Positions 19,392 through 61,195 are shown, counted from the first letter of the stretch. The stretch is 64,000 nucleotides of DNA from Minisyncoccota bacterium (GCA_041666305.1 JBAYHD010000004.1:3946-67945), one strand, 5' to 3'. The notes: generated by a model not told the origin, from the letters alone. Numbers and translations are program-made.

Positions 19392-19394
19392 AGA

Positions 19395-21535: not shown

Positions 21536-21603
21536 AACCTAGACCGTCAAAGTTACCAAAAATAAAATTTTGCCGAGACAAACCGCGGCCCAATCCTAAC
21601 CGC

Positions 21604-22290: not shown

Positions 22291-22385
22291 AATGGATGGA
22301 TGAGATTATACACTACTGATTCAGGTATCCGTTCTGATAGGATCCCTTTAGAACCCTTACGGAAATTTGACAGGCAAAGAAATAG

Positions 22386-22856
22386 GTGATTAAATACAGG
22401 CAGACAGGAATTGCAATCAATGAAGACCTTTACAAGGAGAACACCATGACCAGCCGTTTTAAAAATCGACCGCCGTTGCCAAAGCTTGTGCACGGTCAGC
22501 CGACAGAGTGGCACTGGGTCGTGTACCACCCGAAAAATCTGGTTCTCAGCGATGAAACCGATATCGGGTGCTTCACTTCCATCCATGCTCAACATGGCGT
22601 CGTGATTGAGGACGAAGTGCAGATCGGTTCGCACTGCTCCATCTACTCAATGTCCAGCATCAGTGTGAGCGGAGAACCCGTTGTCGGCAAGGTAACCATC
22701 AAAAAAGGCGCCAGCGTCGGGTCTCACTCAACCGTGATGCCCGGTGTCACCATCGGCGAGGGAGCTGTCGTCGGTGCGCACAGTCTCGTCCTTACGGACA
22801 TTCCGGCGCATTGCATCGCGTACGGCGTGCCTGCAAAGGTGGTCAAGCAACTCTAG
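22386..22856 (+). CDS. Left-handed beta-helix (hexapeptide-repeat) sugar N-acetyltransferase (PglD/NeuD-like); likely start 22446 with AGGAG 8 nt upstream
   Basis: Hexapeptide repeats VQIGSHCSIYS, VGKVTIKKGASVGSHSTVMPGVTIGEGAVVGAHSLV. Confidence 0.8.
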   Translation: MIKYRQTGIAINEDLYKENTMTSRFKNRPPLPKLVHGQPTEWHWVVYHPKNLVLSDETDIGCFTSIHAQHGVVIEDEVQIGSHCSIYSMSSISVSGEPVVGKVTIKKGASVGSHSTVMPGVTIGEGAVVGAHSLVLTDIPAHCIAYGVPAKVVKQL

Positions 22857-22881
22857 ATCTCACGTCTAGGCGCGAGACCAA

Positions 22882-22909
22882 CCCCCGGTATGCCGGGGGT
22901 TTCCTTTTT
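22882..22909 (+). terminator. Rho-independent terminator (CCCCCGGTATGCCGGGGG stem, then TTTCCTTTTT)
   Basis: 7-bp GC stem plus T-run, immediately after the stop of the acetyltransferase gene. Confidence 0.7.
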
Positions 22910-22920
22910 ACGTGGGCAGT

Positions 22921-38190: not shown

Positions 38191-39260
38191 TCTGTTATTT
38201 CTACAGGAAACTTGTGTTTTACCGTCTTATAAGGATAGATATCATCTTGATCAACTCTGTTTCTGATTGATTCGACACTTACTTCGTAGTTTTTTCTTAA
38301 CGAGAAGAATTCTACATCAGAATAATCAAAAACGATCACGGGAACCTTCTTTAGTCCTAATTCTTTTGAGACTTCCATTCTATGCTGCCCGTCCATAACC
38401 AGTCCGTTCGGGTCTACGCAAATCGGCCTCGTCCATATCTTTTCATCAAGGATCTTCTTTTTTAGCCACGCAACTCTTTTTTTAGAAAAAGATTCTATAT
38501 GTTTCAACTTAGAAGTATCGAAGTAAATCGTTGCGCCGATGTTTTTTAACATAGATTCATATTCCGACTGTGTGTTGAACGTATACCTCTTTCCTGATAC
38601 TATTTTGCATGTTAAGTGGAATTTTTCCTTATCGAATAGAGGCTCAAAATAATAAAAGTCCAATCCTCCTTTAGCCAAAGAAGACGCCTCCGCGACAAAT
38701 GTCGATACATCATCGCTGGAAATCCAAAGCGCGCCAGTCATATCAAAATACTGATCATCAATGGGCCCATTTCTCTTTCCAATGATAAAATCTTCGAAAA
38801 GATTATTTTTCACTCTAACGATCCCATTAGATTTATTCTGGTCAGCTTGGCCACCCAGAAACATAACGGAGTCCTTGCTTAAAGAGGCCCCAATCTCACG
38901 GAAAGCAAGGTCATCGTATACGCAATCACCCTCCAAGATCAAAACTCCGTCTTTTGCACCCTTGGCTCCAAGAACGGCAGACCAGATGTTCTTATCACTT
39001 GCAAATTTGTCGTTGACTACATATGAGATCCCGTAGCCTGCCGTATGGTTCTCTATTTGCTCTCGGTTATATCCCACAACGACTTTAATTTTTGCATCTG
39101 GAATGTATCGATTGACTTGACCTATCGCTCTTGAAATAACCGATTGGTTATCAACCGCAGAAAGACATTTGGGTTCTTTGGAATTGAACCTGGTACCCAT
39201 GCCTGCGGCGAGTATCACTACGGTCTTCATATTAGAATCTTGCGAACAAGGCAACGACAC
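38154..39260 (-). CDS. Fusion: LicC-like sugar-phosphate nucleotidyltransferase (N-terminal) plus ParB/Srx-like domain (C-terminal); likely start 39230 (MKTVVILAAG)
   Basis: N-terminal VVILAAGMGTRF...PKCL (NTP_transferase/LicC signature). C-terminal PICVDPNGLVMDGQHRMEVSKELGLKKVPVIVFDY matches the ParB N-terminal/Srx DGxHR core. Confidence 0.65.
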   Translation of the reverse strand: MSLPCSQDSNMKTVVILAAGMGTRFNSKEPKCLSAVDNQSVISRAIGQVNRYIPDAKIKVVVGYNREQIENHTAGYGISYVVNDKFASDKNIWSAVLGAKGAKDGVLILEGDCVYDDLAFREIGASLSKDSVMFLGGQADQNKSNGIVRVKNNLFEDFIIGKRNGPIDDQYFDMTGALWISSDDVSTFVAEASSLAKGGLDFYYFEPLFDKEKFHLTCKIVSGKRYTFNTQSEYESMLKNIGATIYFDTSKLKHIESFSKKRVAWLKKKILDEKIWTRPICVDPNGLVMDGQHRMEVSKELGLKKVPVIVFDYSDVEFFSLRKNYEVSVESIRNRVDQDDIYPYKTVKHKFPVEITDCNISLDSLLYP

Positions 39261-39984
39261 GAAGAAGCATCAGGGCAAATGGCCCGGTGCGGGACTTTGA
39301 TGTAACATACTTGTGATGGTTTTCATCGCGGATGGGTGTTCTCCAGTCGCCGTAGTACCACTCCATATATCGCTCCGGTGCGGCAAATGTCCTATACTGC
39401 TCACCGCGCAATGTAACACTGCTTTCGCCGTGCATAAAGTTATCGGGATAATATGACCACTTTCGGTACCGCTTGTCGCCCATCTTAAAAAATCCTACTA
39501 CCTCAAATATTGACCCGTGCTTTTCTGTCCGTATTCTGAAATCTATCTTGCTTTGTTTATACGCTTTTATCTGATAGCCGGCTTTGACAAAAGCTTCTAT
39601 AAGTTGGGCCTGTTTTGGATACACATCCTCTACTCGCACATCAATATCAACATCACCGTCCCACGCGATAAAATCACCGTCCCTCACAATACCAAGGAGG
39701 GTACCCCCCGCTAAATAATACGGAATGGACAATGTATCAAGAAACGCGCAGACCTCTTTTAAATCTTTGGCACGCAGGGCTAACTCCTCTTCAGTCCTCG
39801 TGCGCATAGACTCTCGTATTTCCCGCTCGGAACGCTCAAAAACTATGCGCGATGGCACAAAAAAAACGACCACTTTCTGTATGATTTTATTGAGAAAATA
39901 ACGCATCGTATGGAGGTTATTATAAGCTGTAACTGCTTTTCTCGCTCCTAGGTTGCTCTGGCCGATGCCTGTGTAGTGGCACAC
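39232..39984 (-). CDS. LicD-family phospho-alcohol (phosphocholine/ribitol-phosphate-type) transferase; likely start ~39906
   Basis: YYLAGGTLLGIVRDGDFIAWDGDVDIDV matches the LicD/fukutin nucleotidyltransferase-fold motif. Confidence 0.72.
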   Translation of the reverse strand: MCHYTGIGQSNLGARKAVTAYNNLHTMRYFLNKIIQKVVVFFVPSRIVFERSEREIRESMRTRTEEELALRAKDLKEVCAFLDTLSIPYYLAGGTLLGIVRDGDFIAWDGDVDIDVRVEDVYPKQAQLIEAFVKAGYQIKAYKQSKIDFRIRTEKHGSIFEVVGFFKMGDKRYRKWSYYPDNFMHGESSVTLRGEQYRTFAAPERYMEWYYGDWRTPIRDENHHKYVTSKSRTGPFALMLLRVVALFARF

Positions 39985-45253: not shown

Positions 45254-46013
45254 AGCGAATCCGCAGACCGGCACGGACATAGCCAACCAGATCGATCTTT
45301 TTTGCGCGACCTACGGAGGAGGTGCGCGATGTGAACATATCCCACGGCGCATCTACCTCGCCAATGGAATACCCGAGTCGGAGCGCCTTCAAAATGGCCT
45401 CAAAGAAAAAAGGGTGGCGATCCTCCTCGAAACGGATTGCATTAACGACCGATGGCTTGTATACGCGAAACCCGAACGTCAGGTCGTGCAGGTGCGTGAG
45501 ATAGAGCACACGGAAGAACTGTTGGAAGATATAGGCGAGCAACAACTTAATCGGATGATAGCCGTTAAAGGTGATGCCGTGGCTCCACCGATTCGAGGCG
45601 ACGATATCGTACCCCTGCTGGAACTTCTCCAACATCAAGGGAAGCGCTGCTGCCGGTGTCTCGCCGTCAGCCGCCATGACGACAATCGCATCACCCTGCG
45701 CGCGCGTAAACGCTTCACGCACGGCGATACCGAGACCGGGGCGCGATTGATCAAAAGACTCGATGTACCCCGGATGGCTCGCTGCGAGCGTATCAATAAC
45801 CGCACGAGTCTCGGATGTCGTGAGTCGCGCTGAGGTCGCTAGCAGCATATGCACATCATACTGTGTAAGACACGCAAACACCTCCTCAACGATTGATTGT
45901 AAGAGCGGTCCCTCATCGAGGGTTGGTAGTATAATAGTTATGCGCATGTGATATAGTTTCCCGCGTATCACTATAAACCGCAAGCAATGACTAAAGATTC
46001 GACCGGTCCCCAA
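45189..46013 (-). CDS. GT2 family glycosyltransferase (GtrB/DPM1-like); likely start 45947 (MRITIILPT)
   Basis: ITIILPTLDE, AADGETPAAA (DXD-like), FGFRVYKPSV. Confidence 0.78.
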   Translation of the reverse strand: MGTGRIFSHCLRFIVIRGKLYHMRITIILPTLDEGPLLQSIVEEVFACLTQYDVHMLLATSARLTTSETRAVIDTLAASHPGYIESFDQSRPGLGIAVREAFTRAQGDAIVVMAADGETPAAALPLMLEKFQQGYDIVASNRWSHGITFNGYHPIKLLLAYIFQQFFRVLYLTHLHDLTFGFRVYKPSVVNAIRFEEDRHPFFFEAILKALRLGYSIGEVDAPWDMFTSRTSSVGRAKKIDLVGYVRAGLRIRFMSVAKMLRDSSTPRDDSRYN

Positions 46014-47231
46014 ATGCGCTGCCAGATATGCGGCAATCCGAAGCTCTCTTTGGTGCTTTCATTAGGGCACCAGCCGGTGTTGCAGGAATACCTCACCGAA
46101 GAAAAGCTCCAAGAGCCAGAAGTCACGTATCCGCTTAATCTTGTCTTTTGCAACATATGCGGCCTTTCCCAGCTCGATTACATCATCGACCCGAAATTGG
46201 TATTTATGCCGCACTATCCCTACCGTACCGGGCTTACTCTCATGTTGGTGCGCAATTTCGACTCGTTGGCGGAGACGATGCACGAAGCGGGTCACTACAA
46301 GAAAAATGATTTGGTAGTAGATATCGGCAGCAACGACGGCACGCTCCTGCAGCAATTTAAAAAGAGGGGTGCAAAAGTCGTCGGTATCGAGCCAACCAAT
46401 GTCGCAAAAATCGCAAACAAAAGCGGCATCCCTACGCTTCAGCATTACTTCAATGCAGGGACCGTAAAAGACATACGAAAAAAATATGGAACTCCGCGGG
46501 TCATAGCGGCAACGAACGTGTTCGCGCATATTAACGATACCGCGGGATTGGTAAAAAATATCAAAGCGCTCATGGACGCAGAGACCGTGTTCGTATCCGA
46601 GTCGCAGTACCTGCGCGATATGGTAGAAAAATTCGCATTCGACACTATTTATAATGAACACCTGCGCTACTACGGTCTCAAACCGATGATCCACTTGTTT
46701 GCTCTGCACAATATGTCGGTCATAGATGCCGAACGCATAGAGGCCGCCGGCGGTTCCATTCGCGTGTATGTAAAAAAGGGTACCCATCCTATGAGCGCGC
46801 GCGCAAAGAAATTACTGGCCGAGGAAAAGAAGATGGGGTTGCACGATCTCAAGACCCTACACTCTTTTGCAAAACGAGTGCATGATGCCAAACACAATTT
46901 CGTCGCGCTTCTCACAAAACTGAAGAAGACGGGCGCGCGCATTGCCGGCATTACGAGCGCCGGACGCTCGAACGCTCTTCTTGGATTTACTAAAATAAAC
47001 AACACTCTGCTGGATTACAACGCCGAGAAAAAAGGCTCCCCGAAGATAGGCATGTACACCCCGGGCACCCATATTCCGGTCGTTGACGAAGAACAACTTA
47101 TACAAGACCAGCCGGAATATGCCGTCGTTCTCTCATGGCATATCGGCGAGGAGTTGATGAAAAAAACCCGCGCCGCCGGCTATAAAGGGAAATTCGTCCT
47201 TCCGCTCCCCGTGGCACGTGTTGTTCGATGA
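45987..47231 (+). CDS. NDP-hexose C-methyltransferase-type SAM methyltransferase (N-terminal zinc ribbon, Methyltransf_13/14 core, C-terminal C-methyltransf domain)
   Basis: CQICGNPKLSLVLSLGHQPV...LVFCNICGLSQL (Zn ribbon); VVDIGSNDGTLL (motif I); C-terminal 100 aa domain. The architecture is that of TylC3/EvaC-like sugar C-methyltransferases. Confidence 0.78.
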   Translation: MTKDSTGPQMRCQICGNPKLSLVLSLGHQPVLQEYLTEEKLQEPEVTYPLNLVFCNICGLSQLDYIIDPKLVFMPHYPYRTGLTLMLVRNFDSLAETMHEAGHYKKNDLVVDIGSNDGTLLQQFKKRGAKVVGIEPTNVAKIANKSGIPTLQHYFNAGTVKDIRKKYGTPRVIAATNVFAHINDTAGLVKNIKALMDAETVFVSESQYLRDMVEKFAFDTIYNEHLRYYGLKPMIHLFALHNMSVIDAERIEAAGGSIRVYVKKGTHPMSARAKKLLAEEKKMGLHDLKTLHSFAKRVHDAKHNFVALLTKLKKTGARIAGITSAGRSNALLGFTKINNTLLDYNAEKKGSPKIGMYTPGTHIPVVDEEQLIQDQPEYAVVLSWHIGEELMKKTRAAGYKGKFVLPLPVARVVR

Positions 47232-49038: not shown

Positions 49039-50112
49039 TTATCGGCGTGCCCTTTTTCTTTTTCCGTTATCCTGCGTTGGCAACGCGACGCCACGGAGAG
49101 CGCAATCGTGCTCGAGCATGATACGCACCAACTCCTTGAATTTTACTTTTGGCTTCCAACCGAGCTTGCGGCGTGCCTTACTGCTGTCGCCGAGAAGATA
49201 ATCCACTTCCGTCGGACGCTTGTGGCGCTCATCTATGACGACATATTTCTTCCAATTATCTATTCCGGCCAAATGGAAGACTTCTTCGACTAATTCCCGA
49301 ACGCTGTGCGACTCCCCCGTCGCAATGACATAATCGTCCGGCTTGTCTTGCTGGAGCATCAGCCACATCGCTTCAACGTAATCAGGGGCATATCCCCAAT
49401 CGCGCTTCGCATCCAGGTTGCCGAGATAAAGCTTGTCGCGTTTGCCGGCTAAAATATCCGCCACGCCCAAAGTAATTTTCCGCGTGACGAAATTAGTCCC
49501 GCGGCGAGGCGACTCGTGATTGAACAAAATACCGTTTGACGCATGGATGCCGTACGCCTCACGATAGTTAACGGTGGCCCAATACGCGTATACTTTGGCA
49601 ATTCCGTATGGACTCCTCGGATAAAATGGCGTTTTCTCGTTTTGGGGGAATTCGCGGGCTTTTCCGAACATCTCCGACGACGAGGCCTGATAAAATCTAG
49701 TTTTGATGCGCGTGTCTCGTATTGCTTCAAGGAGTCTCATCGTTGCAAGGCCGGCTGCTTCGCCCGTATATACGGGCATATCAAAACTGATACCCACATG
49801 ACTTTGCGCGCCCAGATGGTAGATCTCATCCGGCACGATACGCTCTATCAGCCGATGCAAAGAACTTGAATCGTTCAGGTCGCCATAATGCAGATGGAGT
49901 CCGGTCGATTTGCCAAGGTCTTTGCCGTCATATTCGATAGGCTTATTGGTGGCACGTCGCGCCCGTTCGTACACGTGTTCCAAACGCTCGCGATTCACAA
50001 CGCTCGAGCGGCGCACCAAACCGTGCACTTCATATCCCTTGGCCAGCAAGAGGTCGGCTAAGTATGAGCCATCTTGCCCGGTAACTCCGGTGATGAGGGC
50101 TTTCTTCTTCAT
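49039..50112 (-). CDS. gmd: GDP-mannose 4,6-dehydratase
   Basis: [53 protein letters not shown]. Confidence 0.9.
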
Positions 50113-50576: not shown

Positions 50577-51008
50577 CTAGCTAAGGAGCAGTGCGGCGAC
50601 TATCGCCGCGATGAAGCCGATCCCTTGTTTTAGATTCACACCGTGATTTATCACCGCATAGAAAATTGCCGGAATGGAGATCTGCACGATGAGCAGAAGG
50701 ACGTAGAGCGTACTCAAATGTGTCGCCGATGTTCTTCCTACTACATCACTAAGGAAAAGAAGTGAAAGTGCCGCCAACAATCCTGCACCGAGAGCAATTC
50801 CCCATTGCACCGTGTTCGATTGCGCGTTTATTTGTATTCCGCCAGTTGCGACGAGCAGGCCGATGGCGGCAACGAGAGAAACAAAACTATAGACCACGGC
50901 GATAGGCGCCCCGATGAGTCCGCTCCGTTGCATCACGAGCGGCCATGCTCCGGCCGCGATGCCCGCAACAATGACTTCTACATACACATTTCTTAACATA
51001 TCCAACAT
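50577..51008 (-). CDS. Small 4-TM membrane protein (SMR/EamA-half-like; possible ArnE/F-type lipid-linked sugar flippase subunit)
   Basis: 143 aa, four hydrophobic helices. Confidence 0.45.
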   Translation of the reverse strand: MLDMLRNVYVEVIVAGIAAGAWPLVMQRSGLIGAPIAVVYSFVSLVAAIGLLVATGGIQINAQSNTVQWGIALGAGLLAALSLLFLSDVVGRTSATHLSTLYVLLLIVQISIPAIFYAVINHGVNLKQGIGFIAAIVAALLLS

Positions 51009-52071: not shown

Positions 52072-52103
52072 AATATTTGTCCTATAGGATATAATTTGAG
52101 ACA
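52072..52103 (+). promoter_or_regulatory. Promoter/operator of the paaX-like gene: TATAAT at 52091-52096 only 6 nt before the ATG (probably a leaderless mRNA), embedded in a palindromic TTGTCCTATAGGA element
   Basis: A related 38-nt perfect palindrome lies at 52706-52743. Confidence 0.4.
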
Positions 52104-52690
52104 TGAAGAAAATGCGCACGGAAACACGAGGAAAATATCTGCCGATGCGCAATCTGATTCTCCGAACGCTGGTGATGACCGGTGGGATAAGTGTCGCGCT
52201 TGTCGCACCGAAAACTTTGACTCTGCTTAAGAAGCTTGATCGCGGTATGGCGAATCGCAAGAACCTGTATCGAAATATTACCAAGGCGATAACTCGACTC
52301 GAACACGCAGGGCTTGTGCGGGTGTCGGGACAATACGCCAGCCGTAGAGTGGCATTGACCGACAAAGGGCGCACTATGATCGAAACGATCCGTGCAAGCG
52401 AGTATCATATCCCCGAACCGGTATTCTGGGACGGTAAGTGGCGAGTAGTGATGTTCGATATCCGCGAGAAGCGCCGTAGAGCTCGCTCACAGCTCCGTTC
52501 TCTGCTCATGGGTGCCGGATTCTTGCGGCTTCAGGATAGCGTGTGGATCCATCCCTACCCGTGCGACGAATTCATCGGGCTTGTTCGCGCACACCTGAAG
52601 AGCGGGACGGGTGAGATGCTTTCTTTCACTGCTGATGCACTTGAATCGGACAAAAGGTTGCGAGAACACTTCCGTCTCCCCGTCTCATAA
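52103..52690 (+). CDS. PaaX-family transcriptional regulator (wHTH plus PaaX C-terminal-like domain)
   Basis: wHTH ITKAITRLEHAGLVRVS; then WDGKWRVVMFDIREKRRRARSQLRSLLMGAGFLRLQDSVWIHP, typical of the PaaX family. Confidence 0.6.
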   Translation: MKKMRTETRGKYLPMRNLILRTLVMTGGISVALVAPKTLTLLKKLDRGMANRKNLYRNITKAITRLEHAGLVRVSGQYASRRVALTDKGRTMIETIRASEYHIPEPVFWDGKWRVVMFDIREKRRRARSQLRSLLMGAGFLRLQDSVWIHPYPCDEFIGLVRAHLKSGTGEMLSFTADALESDKRLREHFRLPVS

Positions 52691-52705: not shown

Positions 52706-52743
52706 TGTCTCAAATATTGTCCTATAGGACAATATTTGAGACA
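52706..52743. promoter_or_regulatory. 38-nt perfect palindrome TGTCTCAAATATTGTCCTATAGGACAATATTTGAGACA between convergent genes; second copy of the paaX-like operator element, possibly also a terminator
   Basis: 17-bp arms around a TATA centre; resembles 52072-52103. Confidence 0.45.
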
Positions 52744-52803: not shown

Positions 52804-53601
52804 TTATTTTCGCTTTGCACGCTTTTTGACCGTCTTCTTTTTGCTTTTCTTTTTGCTCGCAGTTTTTCCTATCACTGTTACGCCCTTGTGCTGCACCACT
52901 TCGGAGGCGCATTCGTTCGCGAAAGCGATGGCTTCCTCTACGTTCCCTGTTTCCAAATATTTCACGAGGAGCGCGGCGAAGAAGCTGTCCCCCGCTCCAG
53001 TGACATCTTTCACTTCTACTTTCTTACTGACTGGATAATTCTTCCCTTTGAAAAAAGCACCCTGGTCGCCCTTCGTATAGATTATTTTTTTCTCAAGACC
53101 TTTCGGAAGCGACGCTTTTGAACGCTCGTATTCATAATTGTTTATCTTTATGTACTTCGCCTTCATCGCCCAATCGCCCAGGACTTTTTTCGTATCCATA
53201 AAAACCAAGTCGTGATTCTCGCAGATGTGTCGAATATCGTCCTCGGTCAGAAATCCTTTGTTGTAATCGGAGATAGCGACGAGGTCGTACTCGTGAAGCG
53301 GCACCTTGTGCACGTTGATGCGTTCGATGTTTGGTTCGGCGTCGATACGGATGAATGTGTGGTTCGTATTGCGATGCACATAGCGCGTCTTCGTCACCTT
53401 CTCCCATCCCTCATTCGTGTAGAGATCGGCTTGCGGGTAGATGTTGTGCACGTTGCGGTGCATATTGGCCGCCATGCCGGGATTTTCGGTCTCCTCGATG
53501 ACGCGCAGTACGGGCACCGGCAGGTCCGGCGCGAGGCGCTCCGCATGGCAATATACGAATTTATCGAGGCACGCCTCGCCGACGATGAGGATTTTTTTCA
53601 T
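52804..53601 (-). CDS. PfkB-family sugar kinase (RfaE/HldE domain-I-like heptose-7-phosphate kinase) with Lys-rich C-terminal tail
   Basis: ILIVGEACLDKFVY; DVTGAGDSFFAALL (PfkB anion-hole/ATP motif); tail KTASKKKSKKKTVKKRAKRK. Confidence 0.75.
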   Translation of the reverse strand: MKKILIVGEACLDKFVYCHAERLAPDLPVPVLRVIEETENPGMAANMHRNVHNIYPQADLYTNEGWEKVTKTRYVHRNTNHTFIRIDAEPNIERINVHKVPLHEYDLVAISDYNKGFLTEDDIRHICENHDLVFMDTKKVLGDWAMKAKYIKINNYEYERSKASLPKGLEKKIIYTKGDQGAFFKGKNYPVSKKVEVKDVTGAGDSFFAALLVKYLETGNVEEAIAFANECASEVVQHKGVTVIGKTASKKKSKKKTVKKRAKRK

Positions 53602-53648: not shown

Positions 53649-54368
53649 TCACAATTCCCTCTCCACAAAGATGGAATTGACCCTGGTGTCCGCGTACAAA
53701 GAGTACCCCTGCGCTATGAGGTAGTCGTTAATGTTCGGACTTTTCTGAAGATCGCCATTCGCATCGTATCGCAAAGTTTCAACGCAAATGATCTTCGGAC
53801 GGAATCTTTTGAAATCCAGCGAACGCAGGATGTCCAGATCGTAGCTTTCCGTATCCACCGAAAGAATATCAACGCCGTGAGGAAAATAGGTCTCCATGAT
53901 CGAATTGATGGTGACGAGCGGTATGTGCAGTACTTTTTCTATCTTTTGTTTCGTTTTTAATTCTTTGTTGGCAACGGTCTCATCCGCTTCTTCTTTGCTG
54001 AACGTGTTGAGGAATGGCGACGTCATCACATAATAGTCAGCGCTCGTGTTCGCAACCGGGCTGATGCCCACATTCAGGCCTATATCTTTGCTCCGTTTCT
54101 TTTGTATGAGCCGGAACATATCCGGGTTCGGCTCAATGCAGACGCCATGCCCCCCTGCGAGATAGAAAAAGTAGGTGTTGTTCGAATAGGTGGGATCATA
54201 GGCGCCGATATCAAGATAGGAAGGCTTGCCTATGCCGAGTTCTTTGCACGCATAGTCAATAATGAGGTCCTCGCCGACTTGCGCATAACTGCGCCTATAT
54301 CTCCTATTTTGGAGATATTTAAAATAATCAATATAATTCTGTATCTTCAGATATTTCTCAATGTGCAT
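53649..54368 (-). CDS. FkbM-family SAM-dependent methyltransferase
   Basis: GEDLIIDYACKELGIGKPSYLDIGAYDPTYSNNT (FkbM motif I region). Confidence 0.68.
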   Translation of the reverse strand: MHIEKYLKIQNYIDYFKYLQNRRYRRSYAQVGEDLIIDYACKELGIGKPSYLDIGAYDPTYSNNTYFFYLAGGHGVCIEPNPDMFRLIQKKRSKDIGLNVGISPVANTSADYYVMTSPFLNTFSKEEADETVANKELKTKQKIEKVLHIPLVTINSIMETYFPHGVDILSVDTESYDLDILRSLDFKRFRPKIICVETLRYDANGDLQKSPNINDYLIAQGYSLYADTRVNSIFVEREL

Positions 54369-54379
54369 GGCGGTTGAGA

Positions 54380-55549
54380 CTATTCCAACGTAATCGTCGG
54401 CGGGAGATGCAGCTCTTCAAACGAGAGCTTCAAGTTAAGTTTCGGCTTCCCGAACATCGTGAGGATCGCATTCGCAATATCGACCTTGGTCGGGTACCAA
54501 AACTCGCTCAAAGCAGGCGAGGTCGGGCACGGGACGGCGGGACACGAAATCGCGACGGGAGCACTTTTTAATTTCAGCGCGGTATTCTTGGCGATGCTCG
54601 CGATGATCTCCGATCCCACAGAAAATGCTCCATTGGTCGTATCAACCGTGATAAGACGGCCAGTCTTTTTTACCGAGGCGTGAATAGTCTTGTAATCCAG
54701 GGGATTGATGCTCACGAGATCGATGAGCTCCACGCGTTTCGCGTCCTTACCCAAAAGTTCGAGCGCGCGGCGCGCAGTAAAGAGAGCGTCGCCATAACCC
54801 ACAACCGTGATGTCGCTTCCTTTCTTTACTAGGTGCGCTTTATCGAGCGGTACTTCATACAGTTTTGCGGGAACTTCTTCTTTGATGCCGTAGAGCCAGC
54901 GCGACTCAAGCATGACAACCGGATTCTTATCACGTGCGGCGGCAACGAGGAGTCCTTTTGCCATTTTCGGAGACGACGGTACGACGACCTTGAGCCCCGG
55001 CACGCTGCCAAAAAGTGAATAGAGCGCTTGAGAGTGCTGAGGACCGTTGCCCCATTGGCGACCGACCACGATACGAAAAATGATAGGAACCGGACCGCCG
55101 CCGCCGAACATATAGTTCCATTTCGCGGCTTGAGTGAAGATCTGGTCGGCGGCAAGCAGACTGAACTCCACACGATCGTGATGGACGATAGGGTGCAGTC
55201 CGCTGATGGCTGAACCGACGGCGAGCCCGGTCAGTGCGGCTTCAGAGGTAGGCGTCTCGAGAATGCGGGCGGGATATTTTTCCTTCAATCCATTCGTCGT
55301 ACCGGCAGCACCCTGCGGTACGCCGAGTCCGATGACATAGACGGACGGATCCTTCTCCATCACCTGGTCGGTTGCTTCGCGTATCGCATCCGCACATTTG
55401 ATGATCCGGTCAGACATAAAAAATATCGGTATACATCTCCTTCTTCGCGGGATACGGAGATGCCTTCGCGAATTCGATCGCCTCCCGTACTTCAGCATGT
55501 ATCTCGTCCTCAATTTTCTGCAATTTCTTCTCCGCCACTCCATCAGCAA
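54380..55549 (-). CDS. Pyruvate/2-oxoacid dehydrogenase E1 beta-subunit-like protein (transketolase Pyr plus C-terminal domains); likely start 55417 (MSDRIIKC)
   Basis: VYVIGLGV, TPTSEAALTGLAVGSA, KVVVPSSPKMAKGLL, ITVVGYGDAL. Confidence 0.82.
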   Translation of the reverse strand: MLMEWRRRNCRKLRTRYMLKYGRRSNSRRHLRIPRRRRCIPIFFMSDRIIKCADAIREATDQVMEKDPSVYVIGLGVPQGAAGTTNGLKEKYPARILETPTSEAALTGLAVGSAISGLHPIVHHDRVEFSLLAADQIFTQAAKWNYMFGGGGPVPIIFRIVVGRQWGNGPQHSQALYSLFGSVPGLKVVVPSSPKMAKGLLVAAARDKNPVVMLESRWLYGIKEEVPAKLYEVPLDKAHLVKKGSDITVVGYGDALFTARRALELLGKDAKRVELIDLVSINPLDYKTIHASVKKTGRLITVDTTNGAFSVGSEIIASIAKNTALKLKSAPVAISCPAVPCPTSPALSEFWYPTKVDIANAILTMFGKPKLNLKLSFEELHLPPTITLE

Positions 55550-56368
55550 GAAGATATTTCTTCATCAGCTTCACGCTGTCGCGCTTCAGCCGTTCGTTGA
55601 GCGTGTCTTTTCTGCGTAAACCATGTTTGTCGTCCATAAGCGGCGTGCTGTGCGCCATGTGGCGATAGGTCATGCATTCAAGCACTGCCGGTCCCTTTCC
55701 CGCCCGCACGCCCTTAAGAAGGGTCGCAACTTTCTTAGAAACATCACGGAAGTCGTTACCATCCGCGCGCAGATACGAGAGGCCGAATCCCTTTGCTATT
55801 GTCTTGATGTCATACTTCTCACCCCGGCGGTCCGCGATATTCGAATTGACCGACCATGAATTATTTTCGATGACGAGCAGTACGGGAAGTTTGTAGAGTG
55901 CGGCGAGATTATACGTCTCGTAGACAACCCCCTCTTCCGAAGCGCCGTCTCCCATGAATCCAACGGCAACGCCTTTTTTATTATTATATTTTTTTCGAAC
56001 GCTACTCCGGCTGCGAGCGGAACGGCACTTCCAAGGAGTGGTGTTGAACCGACGAAATTCACCGATGTATCTATCATGTGCATGGAGCCGCCTTTGCCGC
56101 GCGCAACGCCATTCCCTCTGCCGAGAAGCTCGCAGGCCATACGGCGCAAGTCCCCTCCCTTGGCGAGATAATGTCCGTGCGAACGGTGGGTAGAGAGTAC
56201 TTTGTCTTCGGCGCCGAGCTGACTACACACGCCGACCGCAACTGCTTCCTGACCGACATAGAAATGGACCATGCTGAATATTTTTTGGTCCAAATACAAC
56301 TTAACCAATTCCTCTTCCGCAATACGCACGAGGAGCATTCGTTTGTAAGCGTCAAATAATTTCTTCAT
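55410..56368 (-). pseudogene. Pyruvate/2-oxoacid dehydrogenase E1 alpha-subunit-like (TPP-binding) gene split by a 1-nt frameshift in an A-tract (track ORFs 55796..56368 and 55410..55955)
   Basis: ORF1 carries YVGQEAVAVGV...GGSMHM...GSAVPLAAGVAFEKNIIIKK. ORF2 continues (G)VAVGFMGDGASEEGVVYE...ENNSWS in another frame. The frames switch in gaaaaaaatataataataaaaaaggcg (plus strand 55958-55990). One extra A in the second A6 run restores a collinear ~320-aa E1alpha. Confidence 0.7.
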
Positions 56369-56371
56369 ACA

Positions 56372-57403
56372 TTACATCACGATAACTATTCTGCTTGCTT
56401 GCCCTTTGCGCAAGAGATCGATCGCCTCATTCACTTCGTCGAGCTTTACCCGATGCGTGATGAGATCTTGCACGGCAAGCGCGCCACTTGTATGTAGCTT
56501 GAGATACTCCGGTATCTCTTCATGCGGCTTGAATTGCCCTCCTTGGGTTGCCTTGATAGATTTACCTTCCCCACCGAAGAGATGCAGCGCATCCTTGATC
56601 TCGATTGTCTCGCCGGGCTTTGGTTGTCCGAGCAGAATGAAGCGGCCCTTGCCGGAGAGGAGCGGGAGTGTTGCTTCAATGGCTTTCTTTGCTCCGGAAG
56701 TGTCTATGATGACATCTACATCGTGCAGGCCGTGGGACGCGAGTGTCTCGGCGATATCTTCGGTGGCAGAATTTATGTAGATGTCGGCGCCAAATCCTTT
56801 CATCTGGTCGCGCTTATGGTCATAGATATCGACCGAGATGATAGGAGCGGCGCCGGCGAGCTTTGCCGCCTTGACGAGATTGGCGCCCAGGCCGCCGGCG
56901 CCCACGATCATCACACGTTCGCCTTTCATCACACGCGCTTCGGCATTAATGGCGCCGAGCGCGGTGGAGAGCGAACAGCCGAGCAGTGCACAGAGTTCGT
57001 CCGGGGTGTCGTGGGGGACCGGGGTCAATCGGTTCTCAGAAACGATCGAGTATTCGCTGAACGTCGTGACTTTTCCGCTTTGTATCTTTTTACCTTTGTA
57101 GATATAGGTCGGGAAATCAGATTCGATGCCGAGGCCTTTACGCCAATGCATAACGACTTTATCGCCCGGTTTGACGTGTGTGACGCCCTCGCCCACTTCC
57201 ATCACCGTGCCGGCGCCCTCATGACCCATCAGATGCGGGACGAATTTCGCGTTCCCTTTGTGACCGGCGATCTCCTGGAGTTGGGAACCGCAAATGCCGC
57301 TCATAAGGACCTTCACCAGTACTTGGCCGCGGACAAGAGGGGTAAGCCCCACCTCGGCGACGACAAGCGGGGTATTAATGGTCTCAAGTACGGCGGCCTT
57401 CAT
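56372..57403 (-). CDS. Zn-dependent medium-chain alcohol/polyol dehydrogenase
   Basis: GICGSQLQEIAGHKG...GHEGAGTV (catalytic Zn site); GAGGLGANLVKAAKLAGA (NAD Rossmann). Confidence 0.88.
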   Translation of the reverse strand: MKAAVLETINTPLVVAEVGLTPLVRGQVLVKVLMSGICGSQLQEIAGHKGNAKFVPHLMGHEGAGTVMEVGEGVTHVKPGDKVVMHWRKGLGIESDFPTYIYKGKKIQSGKVTTFSEYSIVSENRLTPVPHDTPDELCALLGCSLSTALGAINAEARVMKGERVMIVGAGGLGANLVKAAKLAGAAPIISVDIYDHKRDQMKGFGADIYINSATEDIAETLASHGLHDVDVIIDTSGAKKAIEATLPLLSGKGRFILLGQPKPGETIEIKDALHLFGGEGKSIKATQGGQFKPHEEIPEYLKLHTSGALAVQDLITHRVKLDEVNEAIDLLRKGQASRIVIVM

Positions 57404-57452: not shown

Positions 57453-58328
57453 TTAGGGGTATACGAGACTGCCGTGCGTGAAAGTGGCGTAGGTGTTCTC
57501 AAAATACTTTTTCTTGTCCCGATAATACGGCCAGTCAACTGGCTCATCCGTGGCGACAATATGCGGAACATCGCCGAACCACGCCGCGAGATTGCTGAAC
57601 GTGGAATTGTCGCCGATGACGGCACTGCATTTTGAAAGAAGGAACAAATTCGTTTTTTCGTCTTCCGGAGACATCACGGTCGTAAAACCTTCAAATGCGC
57701 CATCCGGTATCGGACAATCGGACACAACGACGAGCGCGACATCTCTCGCATGCAGCATCTTTTCTCGCAGAAATTCTTCAAGGATAGTTTTCATGCGAGC
57801 CAAGGAAATAAGGAATTCGCCATTCTCAAATCCTTTGAATGGCCGTTGCCGTATATGCATACCGATACGAATACGGTCGCTCGGCACTGTCGCGAGAATG
57901 TCCTGTATTTTATTCTGTATGCGCGCGCCGGGCGCAAATGCTTTGATGAGCGCGTCACGGTATTTTTTTAATCCGGCCGGATTTCGAAATAGCCAACCGA
58001 AAAAATATAGCGTGTTGCATGCTTCAAATTTCTTCGACAACGACGCGGTCGGCGGAAGGAATTTTGGCATTCCGGTGGTCCACACGCCGCAGGTATGCCG
58101 CGTCGCAACATCGACAAAACGTGCGTAGAGCATATGCACATATCGCCAGAAATGAAGATGCTCCAAACGGGTGGTATTGATGACGCGCGCGCCCATGGAC
58201 ATGCCGAATGCCGTTATGCTCAGATCGTTCCAGAGGCGATTCGCCAATTCTTTGGCGCGATGTTCGACAATAATGATGTTCCTCATACGAGAATGGTCCA
58301 CGGTTTCTTCAGCACCGGCATATTCCAC
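57453..58328 (-). CDS. GT11-like glycosyltransferase (alpha-1,2-fucosyltransferase-like), tentative
   Basis: IGMHIRQRPFKGF resembles the HxRRGDY region. C-terminal SKCSAVIGDNSTFSNLAAWFG resembles the GT11 SNSTFSWWAA motif. Confidence 0.45.
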   Translation of the reverse strand: MEYAGAEETVDHSRMRNIIIVEHRAKELANRLWNDLSITAFGMSMGARVINTTRLEHLHFWRYVHMLYARFVDVATRHTCGVWTTGMPKFLPPTASLSKKFEACNTLYFFGWLFRNPAGLKKYRDALIKAFAPGARIQNKIQDILATVPSDRIRIGMHIRQRPFKGFENGEFLISLARMKTILEEFLREKMLHARDVALVVVSDCPIPDGAFEGFTTVMSPEDEKTNLFLLSKCSAVIGDNSTFSNLAAWFGDVPHIVATDEPVDWPYYRDKKKYFENTYATFTHGSLVYP

Positions 58329-58987
58329 GGGGGATTCTGCCGTGCGTACCGATGCACGAAAAGCTTCTGACGGGGATTTTCATATTGAAGATTGTCAACG
58401 AGGAACATGAATACCGAATCCACAACGTGTATTTCCTCCGCGCGCTCCAAGAGCGTGCAGTAGTCAAGAATATTATTCGTGAGCGTTTTGCCGGGACGCA
58501 CGACCGGCAGTGTGCTGGCTATCCTGTGCTGGTCTATAGACGAGCCGTAAATGGCGTCATCATGGATGAATATATACGGCTCGTTCCCCACCACTCGCGC
58601 GAGAAAATCGAGCTCTCTCGGCATATCGCGTTCAACATAAAAGCTGTCCCATTTTTTCTGGTGCGGGACACCGGCGAGTGCGTAGAATTGCCGTTCGGCG
58701 ATGATGCCGGTCTCTGGATCGTTCTGAAGCATTTTTATTTCATCATACCGACGGTCGCCAAATCGAAAAGCATTCAGCCAAAGAAAATATTGTTTCCGTC
58801 GGTGATCGCGCACTACCTCGAACCGGAGATTCTTCAGGTCGCGGAACATGAACGATACCGACTCCACATACCGTGGGATGCAGAAGATGCCGACGCGGTC
58901 GTATCGCTTGCAATACTCGCGCACCAGTCCATTGCAGATAAGATTGTCGCCGAGCTTATTGTGGAAATCGAGGAGGATGCTAGACAT
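58283..58987 (-). CDS. Hypothetical protein (234 aa), probable glycan-modifying enzyme by context
   Basis: ORF only; no motif recognised. Confidence 0.35.
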   Translation of the reverse strand: MSSILLDFHNKLGDNLICNGLVREYCKRYDRVGIFCIPRYVESVSFMFRDLKNLRFEVVRDHRRKQYFLWLNAFRFGDRRYDEIKMLQNDPETGIIAERQFYALAGVPHQKKWDSFYVERDMPRELDFLARVVGNEPYIFIHDDAIYGSSIDQHRIASTLPVVRPGKTLTNNILDYCTLLERAEEIHVVDSVFMFLVDNLQYENPRQKLFVHRYARQNPPWNMPVLKKPWTILV

Positions 58988-60026
58988 ATTTTTTAGGAAG
59001 TTCTTCGGTGAAGAAGCGGCGGAAGAATGTATCCTGCTTCAGGTACTTTTCGAATGTCTCCCGCGCTAGTTGCTGGCGGCGTCGCCACTCTTCGTCAGTG
59101 AGCGAATCATAGAAATCGCGGATGAAACGCGGGGTCTCTGCGATCTTCTCCATAGGCACGCGAACGATTATTCGCGCATAATCGATCTCATCCTCAACCG
59201 GAAGCACGATGTCCGTATCGGCAACGACGGGGATCCGTCCGAGAGAAAGAGTTTCTAAAAATCGATTGGAATAATTCCCGTCGCCTTTTGGCGCAAGCAC
59301 GAAATCGGCATCCACGATGCTCTGCAAGAACTCGGAGCGTGCCTGCACCGGATCAAGCTCAATGCTTTTTGCGTGTCCAGAGAATGAGCGCCGGACGATG
59401 AAATTGGTTTTTACCTGCGGCGAGCGCTCACACGCGCTCATCATTGCTCGGCGCCAATACACGCCCAGTTTTCGAGCTCGCAGAGAGGGCTTCAATAACG
59501 TGCCGAAACTATAGAGCAGATTTTTTGTATAATATTTGATCCAACTGCGCAGAGAACGAAATCCGCCCATGCCGCAAAACGAAACGACCGGTTTTTCGTT
59601 CTTGCCTCTCACCGCCAGCAATTCCTGCGGAAAATCTTCTGTCGTCGTCGGCATACAAATGTCTCGCGGGCGGCGAGAACTCCGATACAACGATTGGCGG
59701 AATACCCAGATGCGCGAATCAAAGCGGACCGTATCGGAGAAATCCCCGCACGAAAAAATAAAAAGCGGTTTATGGAGCTGTTCGGCGAGGTCCGCATGAT
59801 ACCGCAGATATTCCCTCGCCCTTTCACCCTGCTCCCGGGGAAAATCATTGACCAGCACAATGGCGTCTGCTGATGCTATGTCTGTCGTCTCGGCCTCCTT
59901 GAAAAAAGAATACGTTATATTCCGGAACAATCCCCCACCAGTACGAGCGGGCGGATGGCGATACTGGAACACAGCGTGCACGCCAATTCCCTCAAGCGGT
60001 TCTGGATAATACAATCGTACCGACAT
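58980..60026 (-). CDS. Exostosin-like (GT47-like) glycosyltransferase
   Basis: FVLAPKGDGNYSNRFLETLSLGRIPVV matches the exostosin PxGDxxxSxRxxExxxxGCIPV region. Confidence 0.5.
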   Translation of the reverse strand: MSVRLYYPEPLEGIGVHAVFQYRHPPARTGGGLFRNITYSFFKEAETTDIASADAIVLVNDFPREQGERAREYLRYHADLAEQLHKPLFIFSCGDFSDTVRFDSRIWVFRQSLYRSSRRPRDICMPTTTEDFPQELLAVRGKNEKPVVSFCGMGGFRSLRSWIKYYTKNLLYSFGTLLKPSLRARKLGVYWRRAMMSACERSPQVKTNFIVRRSFSGHAKSIELDPVQARSEFLQSIVDADFVLAPKGDGNYSNRFLETLSLGRIPVVADTDIVLPVEDEIDYARIIVRVPMEKIAETPRFIRDFYDSLTDEEWRRRQQLARETFEKYLKQDTFFRRFFTEELPKKYV

Positions 60027-60028
60027 AC

Positions 60029-61195
60029 CTATGATCGCGACATCAGCATGCGCTGCATCTCACTGATGATACGTTCCTTCGTAATATCGTACAAACAACG
60101 ATAGACGACCCCGCCGAGCGTTCTGACGCCGCACTCGCCGGTCTTATCGCCGTGGCAGCCGCAGTGTTCGCTCGCGGAAAGCTGGACCGTATGTTCTGCA
60201 TATGCCGGCAGCCAGCATGGGTCGGAGAGATTGCAGAGGACGACCGATGGCACGCCGAGGTGCGAAGCGATATGCGTCACTCCCGAAGACACGCCGACGC
60301 ATATACCCGCTTGTTTGAGCAGGCAGAAAAGATCGTGGGCATGCGGGCTCACTTCCACTCGCGCCCCGGAAATATCTTTTACCATTTCGCGCGCCGCCGC
60401 TTCCTCTTGATGCGCGCAGGTCAAGACAAATTCATGCGCCGGAAATTTGCTCCGCGCATCGACGAGCAAGGGGCGGACTTTTTCTATCGGGAAACTCCGG
60501 CGATAGCTCCCCGCAAAGAAATGGAAAAGGATGTACGGACGTGCGGGTAGTGTCGGGCACACGGGTGCCGACAACGAAGGCACCGGCGCCGGTACGGCAC
60601 GTCCGCCCCAAAGCGGCACCACGCGAGCGATCATAGAAAAAAGACTATCCGTCTTCGGGTCATAGGAAAGCACGCGGACACGGGCGGGCACTTTTTGCGA
60701 GCGCGATTGGCAATGCACCTCCACACTACCAGGGAGCAGTGTGGAGATGCGCGCAAGTATCTTCCACCACGCCGACACGACATCTTGAAATGGCTCGAGG
60801 AACACAACGCCGTGCGGATGCAGAGCAAGTCCTAAAAGAGTGAACCACGAACGGATGTCGCCCCGCGGCATTTCGCGATACTGAACCTCCGGCACCATCT
60901 CCACGATCTGGCGTACGAAATCGCTTTTGCGCGTGGAGATCAGCGTCAGGCGACTCGGAGAGTCTGCGGCTGCGAGCGTGTGCGCTAACTGTATGCCAAG
61001 CAATGCATCGCCTATGGCTCCACCGAAGATGTACAAAAGGTCTTTAGGCATGTGTGAGTTTGAGCACGAAGAAATGGTGGTATGGGCTGCCGAATGGCAC
61101 GAAATCGCGGATGAGCATGCCGTATTTGGAAAGTTTCCGACGAATGAGGGTGACTGGGTATCCGTGTTTGCCGAGTTCCCAATAATGCTGACCAT
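60029..61195 (-). CDS. GT9 family glycosyltransferase (heptosyltransferase-like); likely start internal (MPKDLLYIFGGAIGD)
   Basis: LYIFGGAIGDALLG N-terminal GT9 motif; C-terminal ICVGVSSGVTHIASHLGVPSVVL. Confidence 0.72.
   Translation of the reverse strand: MVSIIGNSANTDTQSPSFVGNFPNTACSSAISCHSAAHTTISSCSNSHMPKDLLYIFGGAIGDALLGIQLAHTLAAADSPSRLTLISTRKSDFVRQIVEMVPEVQYREMPRGDIRSWFTLLGLALHPHGVVFLEPFQDVVSAWWKILARISTLLPGSVEVHCQSRSQKVPARVRVLSYDPKTDSLFSMIARVVPLWGGRAVPAPVPSLSAPVCPTLPARPYILFHFFAGSYRRSFPIEKVRPLLVDARSKFPAHEFVLTCAHQEEAAAREMVKDISGARVEVSPHAHDLFCLLKQAGICVGVSSGVTHIASHLGVPSVVLCNLSDPCWLPAYAEHTVQLSASEHCGCHGDKTGECGVRTLGGVVYRCLYDITKERIISEMQRMLMSRS

Follow-up and report, generated by a model that had tools for sequence, protein, structure and literature searches.

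A pyruvate dehydrogenase E1-like enzyme pair and a zinc alcohol dehydrogenase in a glycan island of a Minisyncoccota bacterium: a possible cassette for tailoring activated heptoses

What would a pair of enzyme subunits of the pyruvate dehydrogenase (PDH) E1 type do inside an island of glycan genes, with none of the E2 and E3 partners on which PDH depends? The question is raised by a stretch of 64,000 nucleotides from a Minisyncoccota bacterium (GCA_041666305.1, JBAYHD010000004.1:3946-67945), the whole of which is referred to here as the window. Within it, at 54380-57403, a zinc alcohol dehydrogenase (ADH) of the medium-chain dehydrogenase/reductase (MDR) family is followed by the alpha and beta subunits of an E1 enzyme dependent on thiamine diphosphate (ThDP). 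By analogy with known sugar-branching enzymes, we give about an even chance to the reading that these genes form a cassette, independent of E2 and E3, which modifies a sugar in nucleotide-activated form for a glycan of the cell surface: the E1 pair would add a pyruvate-derived two-carbon unit to the carbonyl of an activated heptose, and the ADH would reduce the resulting ketone. An earlier note on this DNA had already read the pair as an enzyme of two-carbon branching. The occurrence of an E2-less pair in a glycan island, together with precedent in the literature, bears out that part of its proposal, but its analogy with yersiniose and its choice of a deoxysugar activated by thymidine or uridine diphosphate (TDP or UDP) both call for correction. 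The note did not touch on the frameshift in E1alpha, on the conservation of the cassette and its gene fusions, or on its link to genes for adenosine diphosphate (ADP)-heptose, all of which are set out below.

The cassette and the search for E2 and E3

All three genes lie on the minus strand and are transcribed in the order ADH, E1alpha, E1beta. The ADH gene (57403..56372) encodes 343 residues with matches to PF08240 (2.4e-17) and PF00107 (9.1e-19); E1alpha (56368..55410), the ThDP-binding subunit, is split between frames, its PF00676 match being spread over two open reading frames (ORFs), and has 319 residues once repaired; E1beta (55417..54380, 345 residues) consists of the pyrimidine-binding and C-terminal domains (PF02779, 1.7e-25; PF02780, 3.7e-25). 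On the same strand there follow a gene for an FkbM-family methyltransferase (54368..53649; PF05050, 6.9e-19; TIGR01444) and one for a short PfkB-family kinase resembling RfaE domain I (53601..52804; TIGR02198 rfaE_dom_I, 1.8e-33). The packing of the genes is operon-like from the ADH through to the kinase: three nucleotides separate the ADH stop codon from the E1alpha ATG, E1alpha and E1beta overlap by eight nucleotides, with the E1beta ATG overlapping the E1alpha stop codon (ATGTCTGA), and gaps of 11 and 47 nucleotides respectively precede the FkbM and kinase genes. A terminator-like hairpin with a 17-bp stem, directly past the kinase stop codon (52706..52743, minus strand), is the probable end of this transcription unit, although it comes from a consensus scan only, in which hairpin counts did not exceed those of shuffled controls. 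The C-terminus of the kinase (52804-52880) is a highly basic, lysine-rich tail (KTASKKKSKKKTVKKRAKRK), unusual for a sugar kinase. The identities of the three genes, directly established from Pfam matches and ORFs, are those given in the earlier note, and Pfam matches of the flanking ORFs also confirm that the trio sits within a glycosylation island, between a sugar kinase and FkbM gene on one side and glycosyltransferases on the other.

In domain content the pair is of the heterotetrameric type found in PDH and in acetoin dehydrogenase (AcoA/AcoB), with an E1_dh domain and a GDG...NN motif in E1alpha, and Transket_pyr and Transketolase_C domains in E1beta. The partner enzymes were sought in three ways. 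Pfam scans of some 60 window ORFs found no member of the lipoyl, 2-oxoacid_dh or Pyr_redox families; Escherichia coli AceF and Lpd as queries gave no phmmer match at E<=10 in the window and the related loci L001-L074; and E2 and E3 queries taken from three alpha/beta-type operons gave none at E<=0.01 in the same set. In control E1alpha/beta operons on plasmids of C. difficile, Priestia and Shinella (L082-L084), E2 and then lpdA stand directly downstream of the pair. The earlier note had held that E2 and E3 genes nearby would betray a canonical acetoin or pyruvate dehydrogenase operon; it is a direct observation that the window and L001-L074 contain no adjacent lipoyl-bearing E2 and no E3.

The best matches in the PDB are human PDH E1alpha for E1alpha (7e-52) and human PDH E1beta for E1beta (2.4e-59), and by sequence the subunits appear nearest to E1 of the pyruvate (mitochondrial) type. 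Both fall below the thresholds for assignment to that function: the repaired E1alpha scores 318.8 bits against TIGR03182 (PDH_E1_alph_y; cutoff 393.85) and E1beta 264.3 bits against NF006667 (cutoff 321). Our reading of the alignments to PDB proteins is that the ThDP motif, the conserved histidine of the 'HS' loop, the E1beta glutamate and the QHSQ motif are all kept, and the sequence alone therefore gives no sign that lipoyl chemistry has been lost. The window proteins are of the E1_dh/transketolase type, and the single-chain TPP_enzyme_N/M/C architecture of YerE was not found in them. The earlier note had cited yersiniose as a product of an E1 pair; this was mistaken, YerE being of the acetolactate-synthase type with no E1 pair.

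These results bear on the plainest alternative, namely that the genes are an ordinary catabolic or fermentative set, the E1 component of acetoin or pyruvate dehydrogenase with a 2,3-butanediol or alcohol dehydrogenase, whose site in a glycan island is incidental and whose E2 and E3 are encoded elsewhere or are not needed. Some homologues are indeed annotated 'acetoin:DCPIP oxidoreductase subunit beta' or 'pyruvate dehydrogenase E1 beta', PDH E1 is the best structural and NCBIfam relative, and an MDR ADH beside AcoA/AcoB recalls butanediol/acetoin operons. We nevertheless consider a catabolic role very improbable, because E2 and E3 are missing from 64 kb and from about 70 loci when they stand immediately downstream in the control operons, because the cassette is translationally coupled to the FkbM methyltransferase and the putative heptose kinase, and because the glycan and heptose context is kept across at least four phyla; that neither E1 subunit reaches its NCBIfam equivalog cutoff tells in the same direction.

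The ADH has the GroES-like and Rossmann domains of an MDR zinc enzyme. Alignment with plant and class III ADHs indicates that the catalytic zinc ligands C38, H61 and C153 are kept, and that the usual structural-zinc lobe has been deleted, about 30 residues being missing between positions 85 and 101. A GxGxxG motif followed by 'VD' indicates an NAD-type enzyme. The protein falls below every NCBIfam cutoff, the best models being those for ADHs of class III and for ADHs dependent on N,N-dimethyl-4-nitrosoaniline (NDMA); its best PDB match is a class P/III ADH (5.5e-42), with a gap at the position of the structural-zinc lobe. Homologues within the candidate phyla radiation (CPR; also called Patescibacteria) are 65-94% identical and bear generic names only.

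The split in E1alpha is readily located. One ORF (56368..55796) covers positions 2-119 of the PF00676 profile and a second (55955..55410) covers positions 130-298. Alignment to the relatives L001 and L005 (85-86% DNA identity), both of which have a run of eight A residues and an intact E1alpha of 319 residues, places a one-nucleotide deletion at a run of seven (A7; 55995..55989, minus strand). When one A is added, AFEKKYNNKKGVAVGFMGDGASEEG reappears together with the complete ThDP motif, the repaired protein carrying GDGASEEG...ENN. Within about 9 kb aligned to these relatives the A run is the sole uncompensated indel, the neighbouring genes are all intact, and E1beta of L001 is 96% identical to that of the window. 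E1alpha being one base out of frame, the cassette here must be either inactive or mis-assembled, through a recent real mutation or through a homopolymer sequencing error. Homopolymer slippage is a classic switch of surface-glycan genes, and the contrast between A7 in the window and A8 in two relatives would fit a pseudogene inactivated not long ago, or an allele switched 'off' by phase variation, from which no product is made. We consider this less likely than not: a single indel among intact genes, in a sequence context where miscalls are a common error, argues against it. The tract is moreover an ordinary run of lysine codons which is not kept in more distant relatives, and it is therefore no dedicated switch; programmed slippage and a designed phase-variation tract were dropped from consideration on these grounds.

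Conservation and linkage to ADP-heptose genes

Database clusters 66-96% identical to E1beta number more than 120, the named ones being from Kaiserbacteria, Paceibacterota and Vogelbacteria, and relatives at 32-47% identity occur in Pelagibacteraceae (SAR11), SAR86, Mucilaginibacter, Opitutaceae and Hyphomicrobium. Scanning a single genome for each species gave 70 loci, mostly from Patescibacteria. The ADH gene lies directly upstream of E1alpha in 47 of the 60 loci with enough flanking sequence, and in five Patescibacteria genomes the two are a single protein of 661-690 residues, in which ADH residues 1-343 run into E1alpha without a linker (L012:4040-6031, L025:7930-10002, L048:8011-9996, L065:296-2287 and L073:8023-10008). 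The trio stands within glycan islands also in Vogelbacteria (67% identity) and in L001, and the FkbM gene directly 3' of E1beta recurs in Mucilaginibacter (L066). An E1 pair that lacks E2 and E3 and lies in a glycan island was observed in the window and in every related locus examined that has the cassette. Conservation and fusion are matters of direct observation, as is the gene linkage described below. Loci of Paceibacteria type with 62-72% E1beta identity (L009, L013, L017, L018 and others) are often labelled 'uncultured Candidatus Saccharibacteria', and a few are labelled 'Gammaproteobacteria', 'Planctomycetia' or 'Rheinheimera'; these third-party taxon labels look unreliable for the bins concerned.

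The earlier note had proposed a phylogenetic comparison with the dehydrogenases. In a small neighbour-joining tree of E1beta, confined to E2/E3-linked references and uncharacterised glycan-linked pairs, the three references stand apart as a clade of their own (100% support). The window sequence falls inside a CPR clade (87%), SAR11, SAR86 and Mucilaginibacter form a third clade (100%), and the Azospirillum, Opitutaceae and Hyphomicrobium sequences fall between the clades.

The kinase at the end of the operon gives the first indication of the sugar that may be involved. Its presence was correctly noted before, simply as that of a sugar kinase; by sequence it is more specifically a putative heptose-7-phosphate kinase, in the role of HldA in the ADP-heptose pathway, although it scores only 116 bits against TIGR02198 (rfaE_dom_I), under the cutoff of 345. 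Orthologues of this kinase lie directly 3' of E1beta in 25 of 63 loci. The neighbourhoods were compared with a reference set from E. coli K-12 (GmhA, GmhB, HldE as two separate domains, HldD, Gmd, RfbB and WaaC/F). Genes for GmhB, GmhA, an HldC-type adenylyltransferase and an HldD-like short-chain dehydrogenase/reductase (SDR) were found within 10 kb of the cassette in L010, L022, L034, L039 and L058, and the same set minus GmhB in L036; in these six loci the cassette kinase is the only homologue of the HldE kinase. A more canonical HldA-type kinase is found near the cassette instead in L038, L040, L051 and L054. At least one ADP-heptose gene is present in 25 of the 35 CPR-type loci that have at least 5 kb of sequence on both sides.

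The same association is seen outside the CPR. In Mucilaginibacter the order is HldD (328 bits, cutoff 274.6), GmhA, kinase and then ADH-E1alpha-E1beta-FkbM. In SAR86 the cassette is preceded by Gmd, Fcl, GmhB, HldD (again over the NCBIfam cutoff), GmhA, a bifunctional HldE and a gene resembling glycosyltransferase family 9 (GT9), and in SAR11 by GmhA, an SDR and a bifunctional HldE; on a plasmid of Azospirillum oryzae, SDRs, an HldE-like and a GmhA-like gene come directly before E1alpha-E1beta. L066 and L067 both have an HldD that exceeds the NCBIfam cutoff. GT9-like genes recur next to the cassette in related loci. The SDR content varies: the distant variants have RfbB-like enzymes, many CPR loci have only an HldD-like enzyme or none, and the window has a Gmd-like gene 2.7 kb beyond the kinase. 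Taken by sequence, the partners kept with the cassette speak for ADP-heptose and not for a classical TDP- or UDP-activated deoxyhexose, the acceptor that had been supposed earlier.

An ORF of 143 residues (50577..51008) was tried as the missing nucleotidyltransferase and rejected, since it translates into a membrane protein that is small and hydrophobic. Before the next gene on the minus strand, the kinase is followed by a single plus-strand gene (52103-52690), which encodes a protein with a PaaX-central/Cas2-like domain (PF20803, 1e-17), which may be a regulator; its homologues (cluster c80) are found among the heptose genes in L008 and L010.

Proposed reactions and their alternatives

In sugar clusters, E2-less E1alpha/beta pairs have one documented role only, two-carbon branching from pyruvate onto a keto-sugar bound to a nucleoside diphosphate (NDP) (PMC4802897, PMC4753412, PMC10338323). 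The pairs in question are Plm8/Plm9, which are the same as Pau11/Pau12, for paulomycose, AviB1/AviB2 for the eurekanate of avilamycin, and EvdU5/EvdS3 for everninomicin (PMC4802897, PMC4753412, PMC10338323), the role of the last being still hypothetical in 2023. The acetyl branch is reduced by Pau7, an aldo-keto reductase (AKR) (PMC4802897, PMC4753412, PMC10338323), and acetyl branches are in general tailored by reductases, transaminases or oxygenases (PMC9306805). On this pattern the cassette, usually co-transcribed with the putative heptose-7-phosphate kinase, would start with the decarboxylation of pyruvate by E1alpha2beta2 to give hydroxyethyl-ThDP, whose two-carbon unit would pass to the carbonyl carbon of an NDP-keto-sugar instead of to lipoyl-E2. 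The acceptor would most likely be a sugar derived from ADP-heptose; in the window, 4-keto-6-deoxymannose activated by guanosine diphosphate (GDP), from the nearby Gmd, is an alternative. The product would bear an acetyl (alpha-hydroxy-ketone) branch, to be reduced by the NAD-type zinc ADH to a 1-hydroxyethyl group, after which the FkbM enzyme would methylate the sugar and the adjacent transferases of GT9-like, GT11-like and GT47 type would install it. We infer which donor and acceptor are used, which position is attacked and in which direction the ADH works.

The place of the ADH in this sequence is illuminated by loci which lack it. In Azospirillum, L062 and L063, E1alpha/beta is flanked instead by DegT aminotransferases: on A. 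oryzae KACC 14407 plasmid NZ_CP054615.1 (L080, 5780-18135) the pair is accompanied by two DegT genes and then a radical SAM enzyme, and on an A. lipoferum 4B plasmid (L085) an E2-less pair has a DegT gene downstream. DegT and ADH are thus two alternative, putatively ketone-processing enzymes at the same position beside E1alpha/beta, in agreement with the tailoring of acetyl branches by reductases or transaminases that has been published (PMC9306805). Because the one replaces the other, reduction of the E1 product is favoured over an order in which the ADH acts first, and an amino rather than a hydroxy product is suggested for the Azospirillum-type loci.

Several observations weigh against the proposal that the cassette builds a two-carbon branch on an activated heptose. 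The precedent itself is limited, the actinomycete E1-type branching enzymes being supported by genetics only (PMC4802897, PMC4753412, PMC10338323). The earlier note had named the ADH as the partner that reduces the new keto group; its position upstream of E1alpha and its fusion to E1alpha do support a functional tie to the E1 enzyme, but it is an MDR enzyme, unlike Pau7, the sole characterised branch ketoreductase. The 64-kb window has no match to GmhA or HldC, and the kinase is the sole heptose-pathway enzyme in it, as also in the relative L001; the only members of the heptose reference set found in the window are the kinase and GT9-type genes. E1alpha is frameshifted in the window assembly. 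Glycan-linked E1beta proteins as one clade were considered and rejected, since the tree shows at least three groups of them. Two further points, the SDR content of certain loci and the use of the same E1 type in other settings, each bring in an alternative of their own.

In several cassette loci (L009, L017 and L044, for example) no SDR that could supply a keto acceptor lies within 10 kb, which counts against the branching proposal because an ADH confined to reduction would depend on such an SDR. The difficulty would disappear if the order were reversed. The ADH might first oxidise a hydroxyl of ADP-heptose, for example the primary C7 hydroxyl to an aldehyde or else a secondary one, and the E1 pair might then carry out an acyloin condensation with hydroxyethyl-ThDP, in the manner of 1-deoxy-D-xylulose 5-phosphate synthase; this we hold to be unlikely, though not negligibly so. 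With similar reserve it can be supposed that the same ADH re-reduces the product, so that the sequence is redox-neutral and yields a chain-extended 9-deoxy-nonose, or a branch elsewhere than at C4, without a 4,6-dehydratase. Linker-less fusion of ADH to E1alpha in five genomes would suit the channelling of a reactive aldehyde or ketone, the nearest ADH families (class III/P and NDMA-dependent) act on primary alcohols or hemithioacetals, and carboligation of aldehydes by E1 enzymes is on record (PMC7696235); the loci with a complete ADP-heptose set have an HldD-like SDR only, and some loci have none. Against this, the exchange of ADH for DegT in Azospirillum, L062 and L063 is simpler if both enzymes process a ketone made by E1, those same variants carry RfbB-like SDRs able to make a 4-keto acceptor, and the ADH, lying under all NCBIfam cutoffs, is too dissimilar to characterised enzymes for its substrate to be predicted. 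There is a minor chance that the ADH and the E1 pair amount to a self-contained machine that would oxidise, ligate and reduce, converting ADP-heptose and pyruvate into a nine-carbon or C-branched heptose without a 4,6-dehydratase. If so, it would represent a previously unknown route to higher-carbon sugars, one that decorates patescibacterial surfaces and is found as well in SAR11, SAR86, Bacteroidota and Verrucomicrobia.

The second point is that a CPR subgroup with about 65% E1beta identity (L023, L026, L029, L032, L033, L035 and L056) has neither ADH nor heptose genes. The neighbours there are a class I/II aminotransferase, two genes resembling ATP-grasp/L-amino-acid ligases, a NUDIX gene, a D-2-hydroxyacid dehydrogenase and an NDK-like gene (for example L033:9028-12609), and the pathway looks to be a different one, not concerned with glycans, so that the E1 pair is not restricted to sugar chemistry. 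On Streptomyces griseofuscus plasmid pSGRIFU1 (L081, 10986-16516) an E2-less E1alpha/beta pair lies directly upstream of a condensation-domain protein of nonribosomal peptide synthetase (NRPS) type, among polyketide synthase (PKS) genes, and apparently serves polyketide or peptide rather than sugar chemistry. Together these cases show that this type of E1 has been recruited to different acceptors, which limits what can be deduced from context. They also lend some credit to the idea that the cassette turns pyruvate into a small non-sugar unit (acetoin, 2,3-butanediol or a related four-carbon compound, for instance) for attachment to the glycan, or that it modifies the heptose after transfer to a glycan or protein. 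E1 and ADH alone could form an acyloin from pyruvate, whether or not an aldehyde takes part, and from the acyloin a diol. No conserved enzyme that might activate such a unit accompanies the cassette, however, and its conserved partners are ADP-heptose genes and GT9-type transferases; the chance that this idea is correct is therefore slight.

The surrounding island and known systems

The genes immediately upstream of the ADH, all on the minus strand, would provide the transferases of the proposed pathway. The first (orf291, 57453..58289) encodes a candidate glycosyltransferase resembling the fucosyltransferase-type family GT11, an assignment made at family level: three of the 13 family members match PF01531 (best E 4.6e-05), the window copy itself having no Pfam match and no PDB match by sequence-profile search. 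It stands next to the cassette in 14 loci. The next (orf234, 58283..58987) has 151 homologues, all from Patescibacteria and all named hypothetical; no Pfam match, even in a scan of the whole family, and no PDB match by sequence profile was found for it. Its AlphaFold2 (AF2) model has a mean predicted local distance difference test (pLDDT) score of 91.8, and the best Foldseek matches are 3TOV (GT9), WaaF (1PSW), TibC and WaaC, with E-values from 2e-4 to 1e-2 and TMq of 0.46-0.59, so that the predicted fold, in the model, resembles that of a compact, shortened GT9 heptosyltransferase. These are followed by an exostosin-like GT47 glycosyltransferase (58980..60026; PF03016, 4.2e-12), syntenic in L001, L006 and L007, and by a glycosyltransferase of the heptosyltransferase family GT9 itself (60029..61195; PF01075, 4.8e-08). 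Further upstream on the same strand come a methyltransferase, a GT4 enzyme and a gene resembling UDP-glucose dehydrogenase. On the other side of the kinase, the Gmd-like SDR (49039..50112, minus strand; PF16363, 1.7e-137; 393 bits with E. coli Gmd), of the GDP-mannose 4,6-dehydratase type, is the possible source of the alternative 4-keto-6-deoxy acceptor, and the C-methyltransferase mentioned in the earlier note is indeed present (45987..47231; PF08421, PF08484).

The glycan island as a whole extends from about 13 kb to 64 kb of the window, beyond the housekeeping genes GatB, Obg, SecA and MurB at 5-13 kb. Besides the C-methyltransferase and Gmd genes it contains a Wzy_C/TPR protein, an ABC exporter, genes for a nonulosonic acid, and many methyl- and glycosyltransferases. 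The nonulosonic-acid set (18684-23976) comprises a CMP-sugar synthetase-like gene (CTP_transf_3), a PseB-like dehydratase, a DegT aminotransferase, a hexapeptide acetyltransferase and NeuB, and the same island therefore also makes a sugar of the pseudaminic or legionaminic type. Three genes in a row at 36925-39984, for a DUF711 protein, for an NTP-transferase with a fused C-terminal region like that of the phosphoserine-forming SerK/SbnI, and for a LicD-family protein, look like a pathway for a phospho-substituent of the glycan. The Wzy_C/TPR gene and the island genes that come next are separated by a weak match to an IS200-like Y1 transposase (15240-15914, plus strand; PF01797, 8.2e-05). The first 4 kb of the window have 60% G+C, compared with about 50% elsewhere and as little as 47% at 4-6 kb; ORFs scanned at 1-4500 gave no Pfam match, and that region no Rfam or tRNA match, the tRNA and Rfam scans of the whole window being likewise empty.

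Literature searches for an E1 pair with heptose, in Patescibacteria or with caryophyllose found no description of this cassette, and the database names of its proteins are generic or are 'pyruvate/acetoin dehydrogenase'. The proposed chemistry is of a known kind; what did not turn up in the searchable literature is the trio with its MDR ADH and fusion, its association with ADP-heptose, and its spread through Patescibacteria and marine clades. The Patescibacteria make up a large share of bacterial diversity, and the chemistry of their cell surfaces, which presumably contact hosts, is essentially unknown. The cassette is among the best conserved genes of CPR glycan islands, with at least 65% identity across several candidate classes, and marine clades of high abundance have it too. 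Transfer of a pyruvate-derived two-carbon unit to ADP-heptose, if it occurs, would define a new family of heptose-derived sugars and would carry ThDP-dependent carboligation of the E1 type beyond the deoxysugars of antibiotics into the glycans of cell envelopes. Since no E2 or E3 accompanies the genes, their annotation as pyruvate or acetoin dehydrogenase in metabolic reconstructions of the CPR is not supported. E1-type sugar-branching pairs have no in vitro reconstitution in the literature cited here, and the compact or fused CPR versions, together with the cultured carriers Mucilaginibacter sp. PPCGB 2223 and Azospirillum oryzae KACC 14407, offer tractable systems.

Among known systems, the logic of the proposed pathway is shared by YerE/YerF (yersiniose A), ErwE/ErwF and MyGE (erwiniose and sugars of the caryophyllose type), in which a ThDP-bound acyl anion from a 2-oxo acid is added to an NDP-4-keto sugar and the side chain is then reduced with NAD(P)H, again for cell-envelope glycans (PMC9306805). 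The YerE-type enzymes are single-chain, acetolactate-synthase-like members of another ThDP family, whereas the window enzyme is a heterotetramer of the E1_dh/transketolase type. The E1 components of the PDH and acetoin dehydrogenase complexes (PdhA/PdhB, AcoA/AcoB) have the same fold, domains and ThDP motif and are the closest in sequence; unlike them, the window pair has no E2 or E3, scores under the equivalog cutoffs, belongs to another clade and lies in a biosynthetic context. The Azospirillum plasmid loci (A. oryzae KACC 14407 and A. lipoferum 4B), with L062 and L063, also have an E2-less pair (43% E1beta identity), in A. oryzae within a polysaccharide locus, and differ from the window in having one or two DegT aminotransferases after E1beta and no MDR ADH. 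The pathway to ADP-L-glycero-D-manno-heptose is represented around the cassette, in many relatives, by homologues of all five of its enzymes (GmhA, HldE/HldA, GmhB, HldC and HldD) and by GT9 transferases. In contrast to the heptose pathway of the lipopolysaccharide (LPS) core, it is here coupled to a ThDP enzyme and an ADH, and in the window it is reduced to the kinase and GT9-type genes; we know of no Patescibacteria that make LPS. The nearest parallels, compared by published description and gene context, are AviB1/AviB2, Pau11/Pau12 and EvdU5/EvdS3, to which AlmDI/AlmDII, for aldgarose, are comparable. As in those systems, a PDH-E1-like pair without E2 and E3 lies inside a sugar or glycosylation cluster, and in the known systems the proposed branching is followed by reduction of the branch. 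Those pairs belong to actinomycete antibiotic pathways and act on TDP- or UDP-activated 4-keto deoxyhexoses or pentoses; the present pair belongs to a cell-surface glycan island of Patescibacteria, its partners are ADP-heptose genes and GT9-like transferases, and the putative reductase, which in some genomes is fused to E1alpha, is a zinc ADH of the MDR family in place of an AKR such as Pau7.

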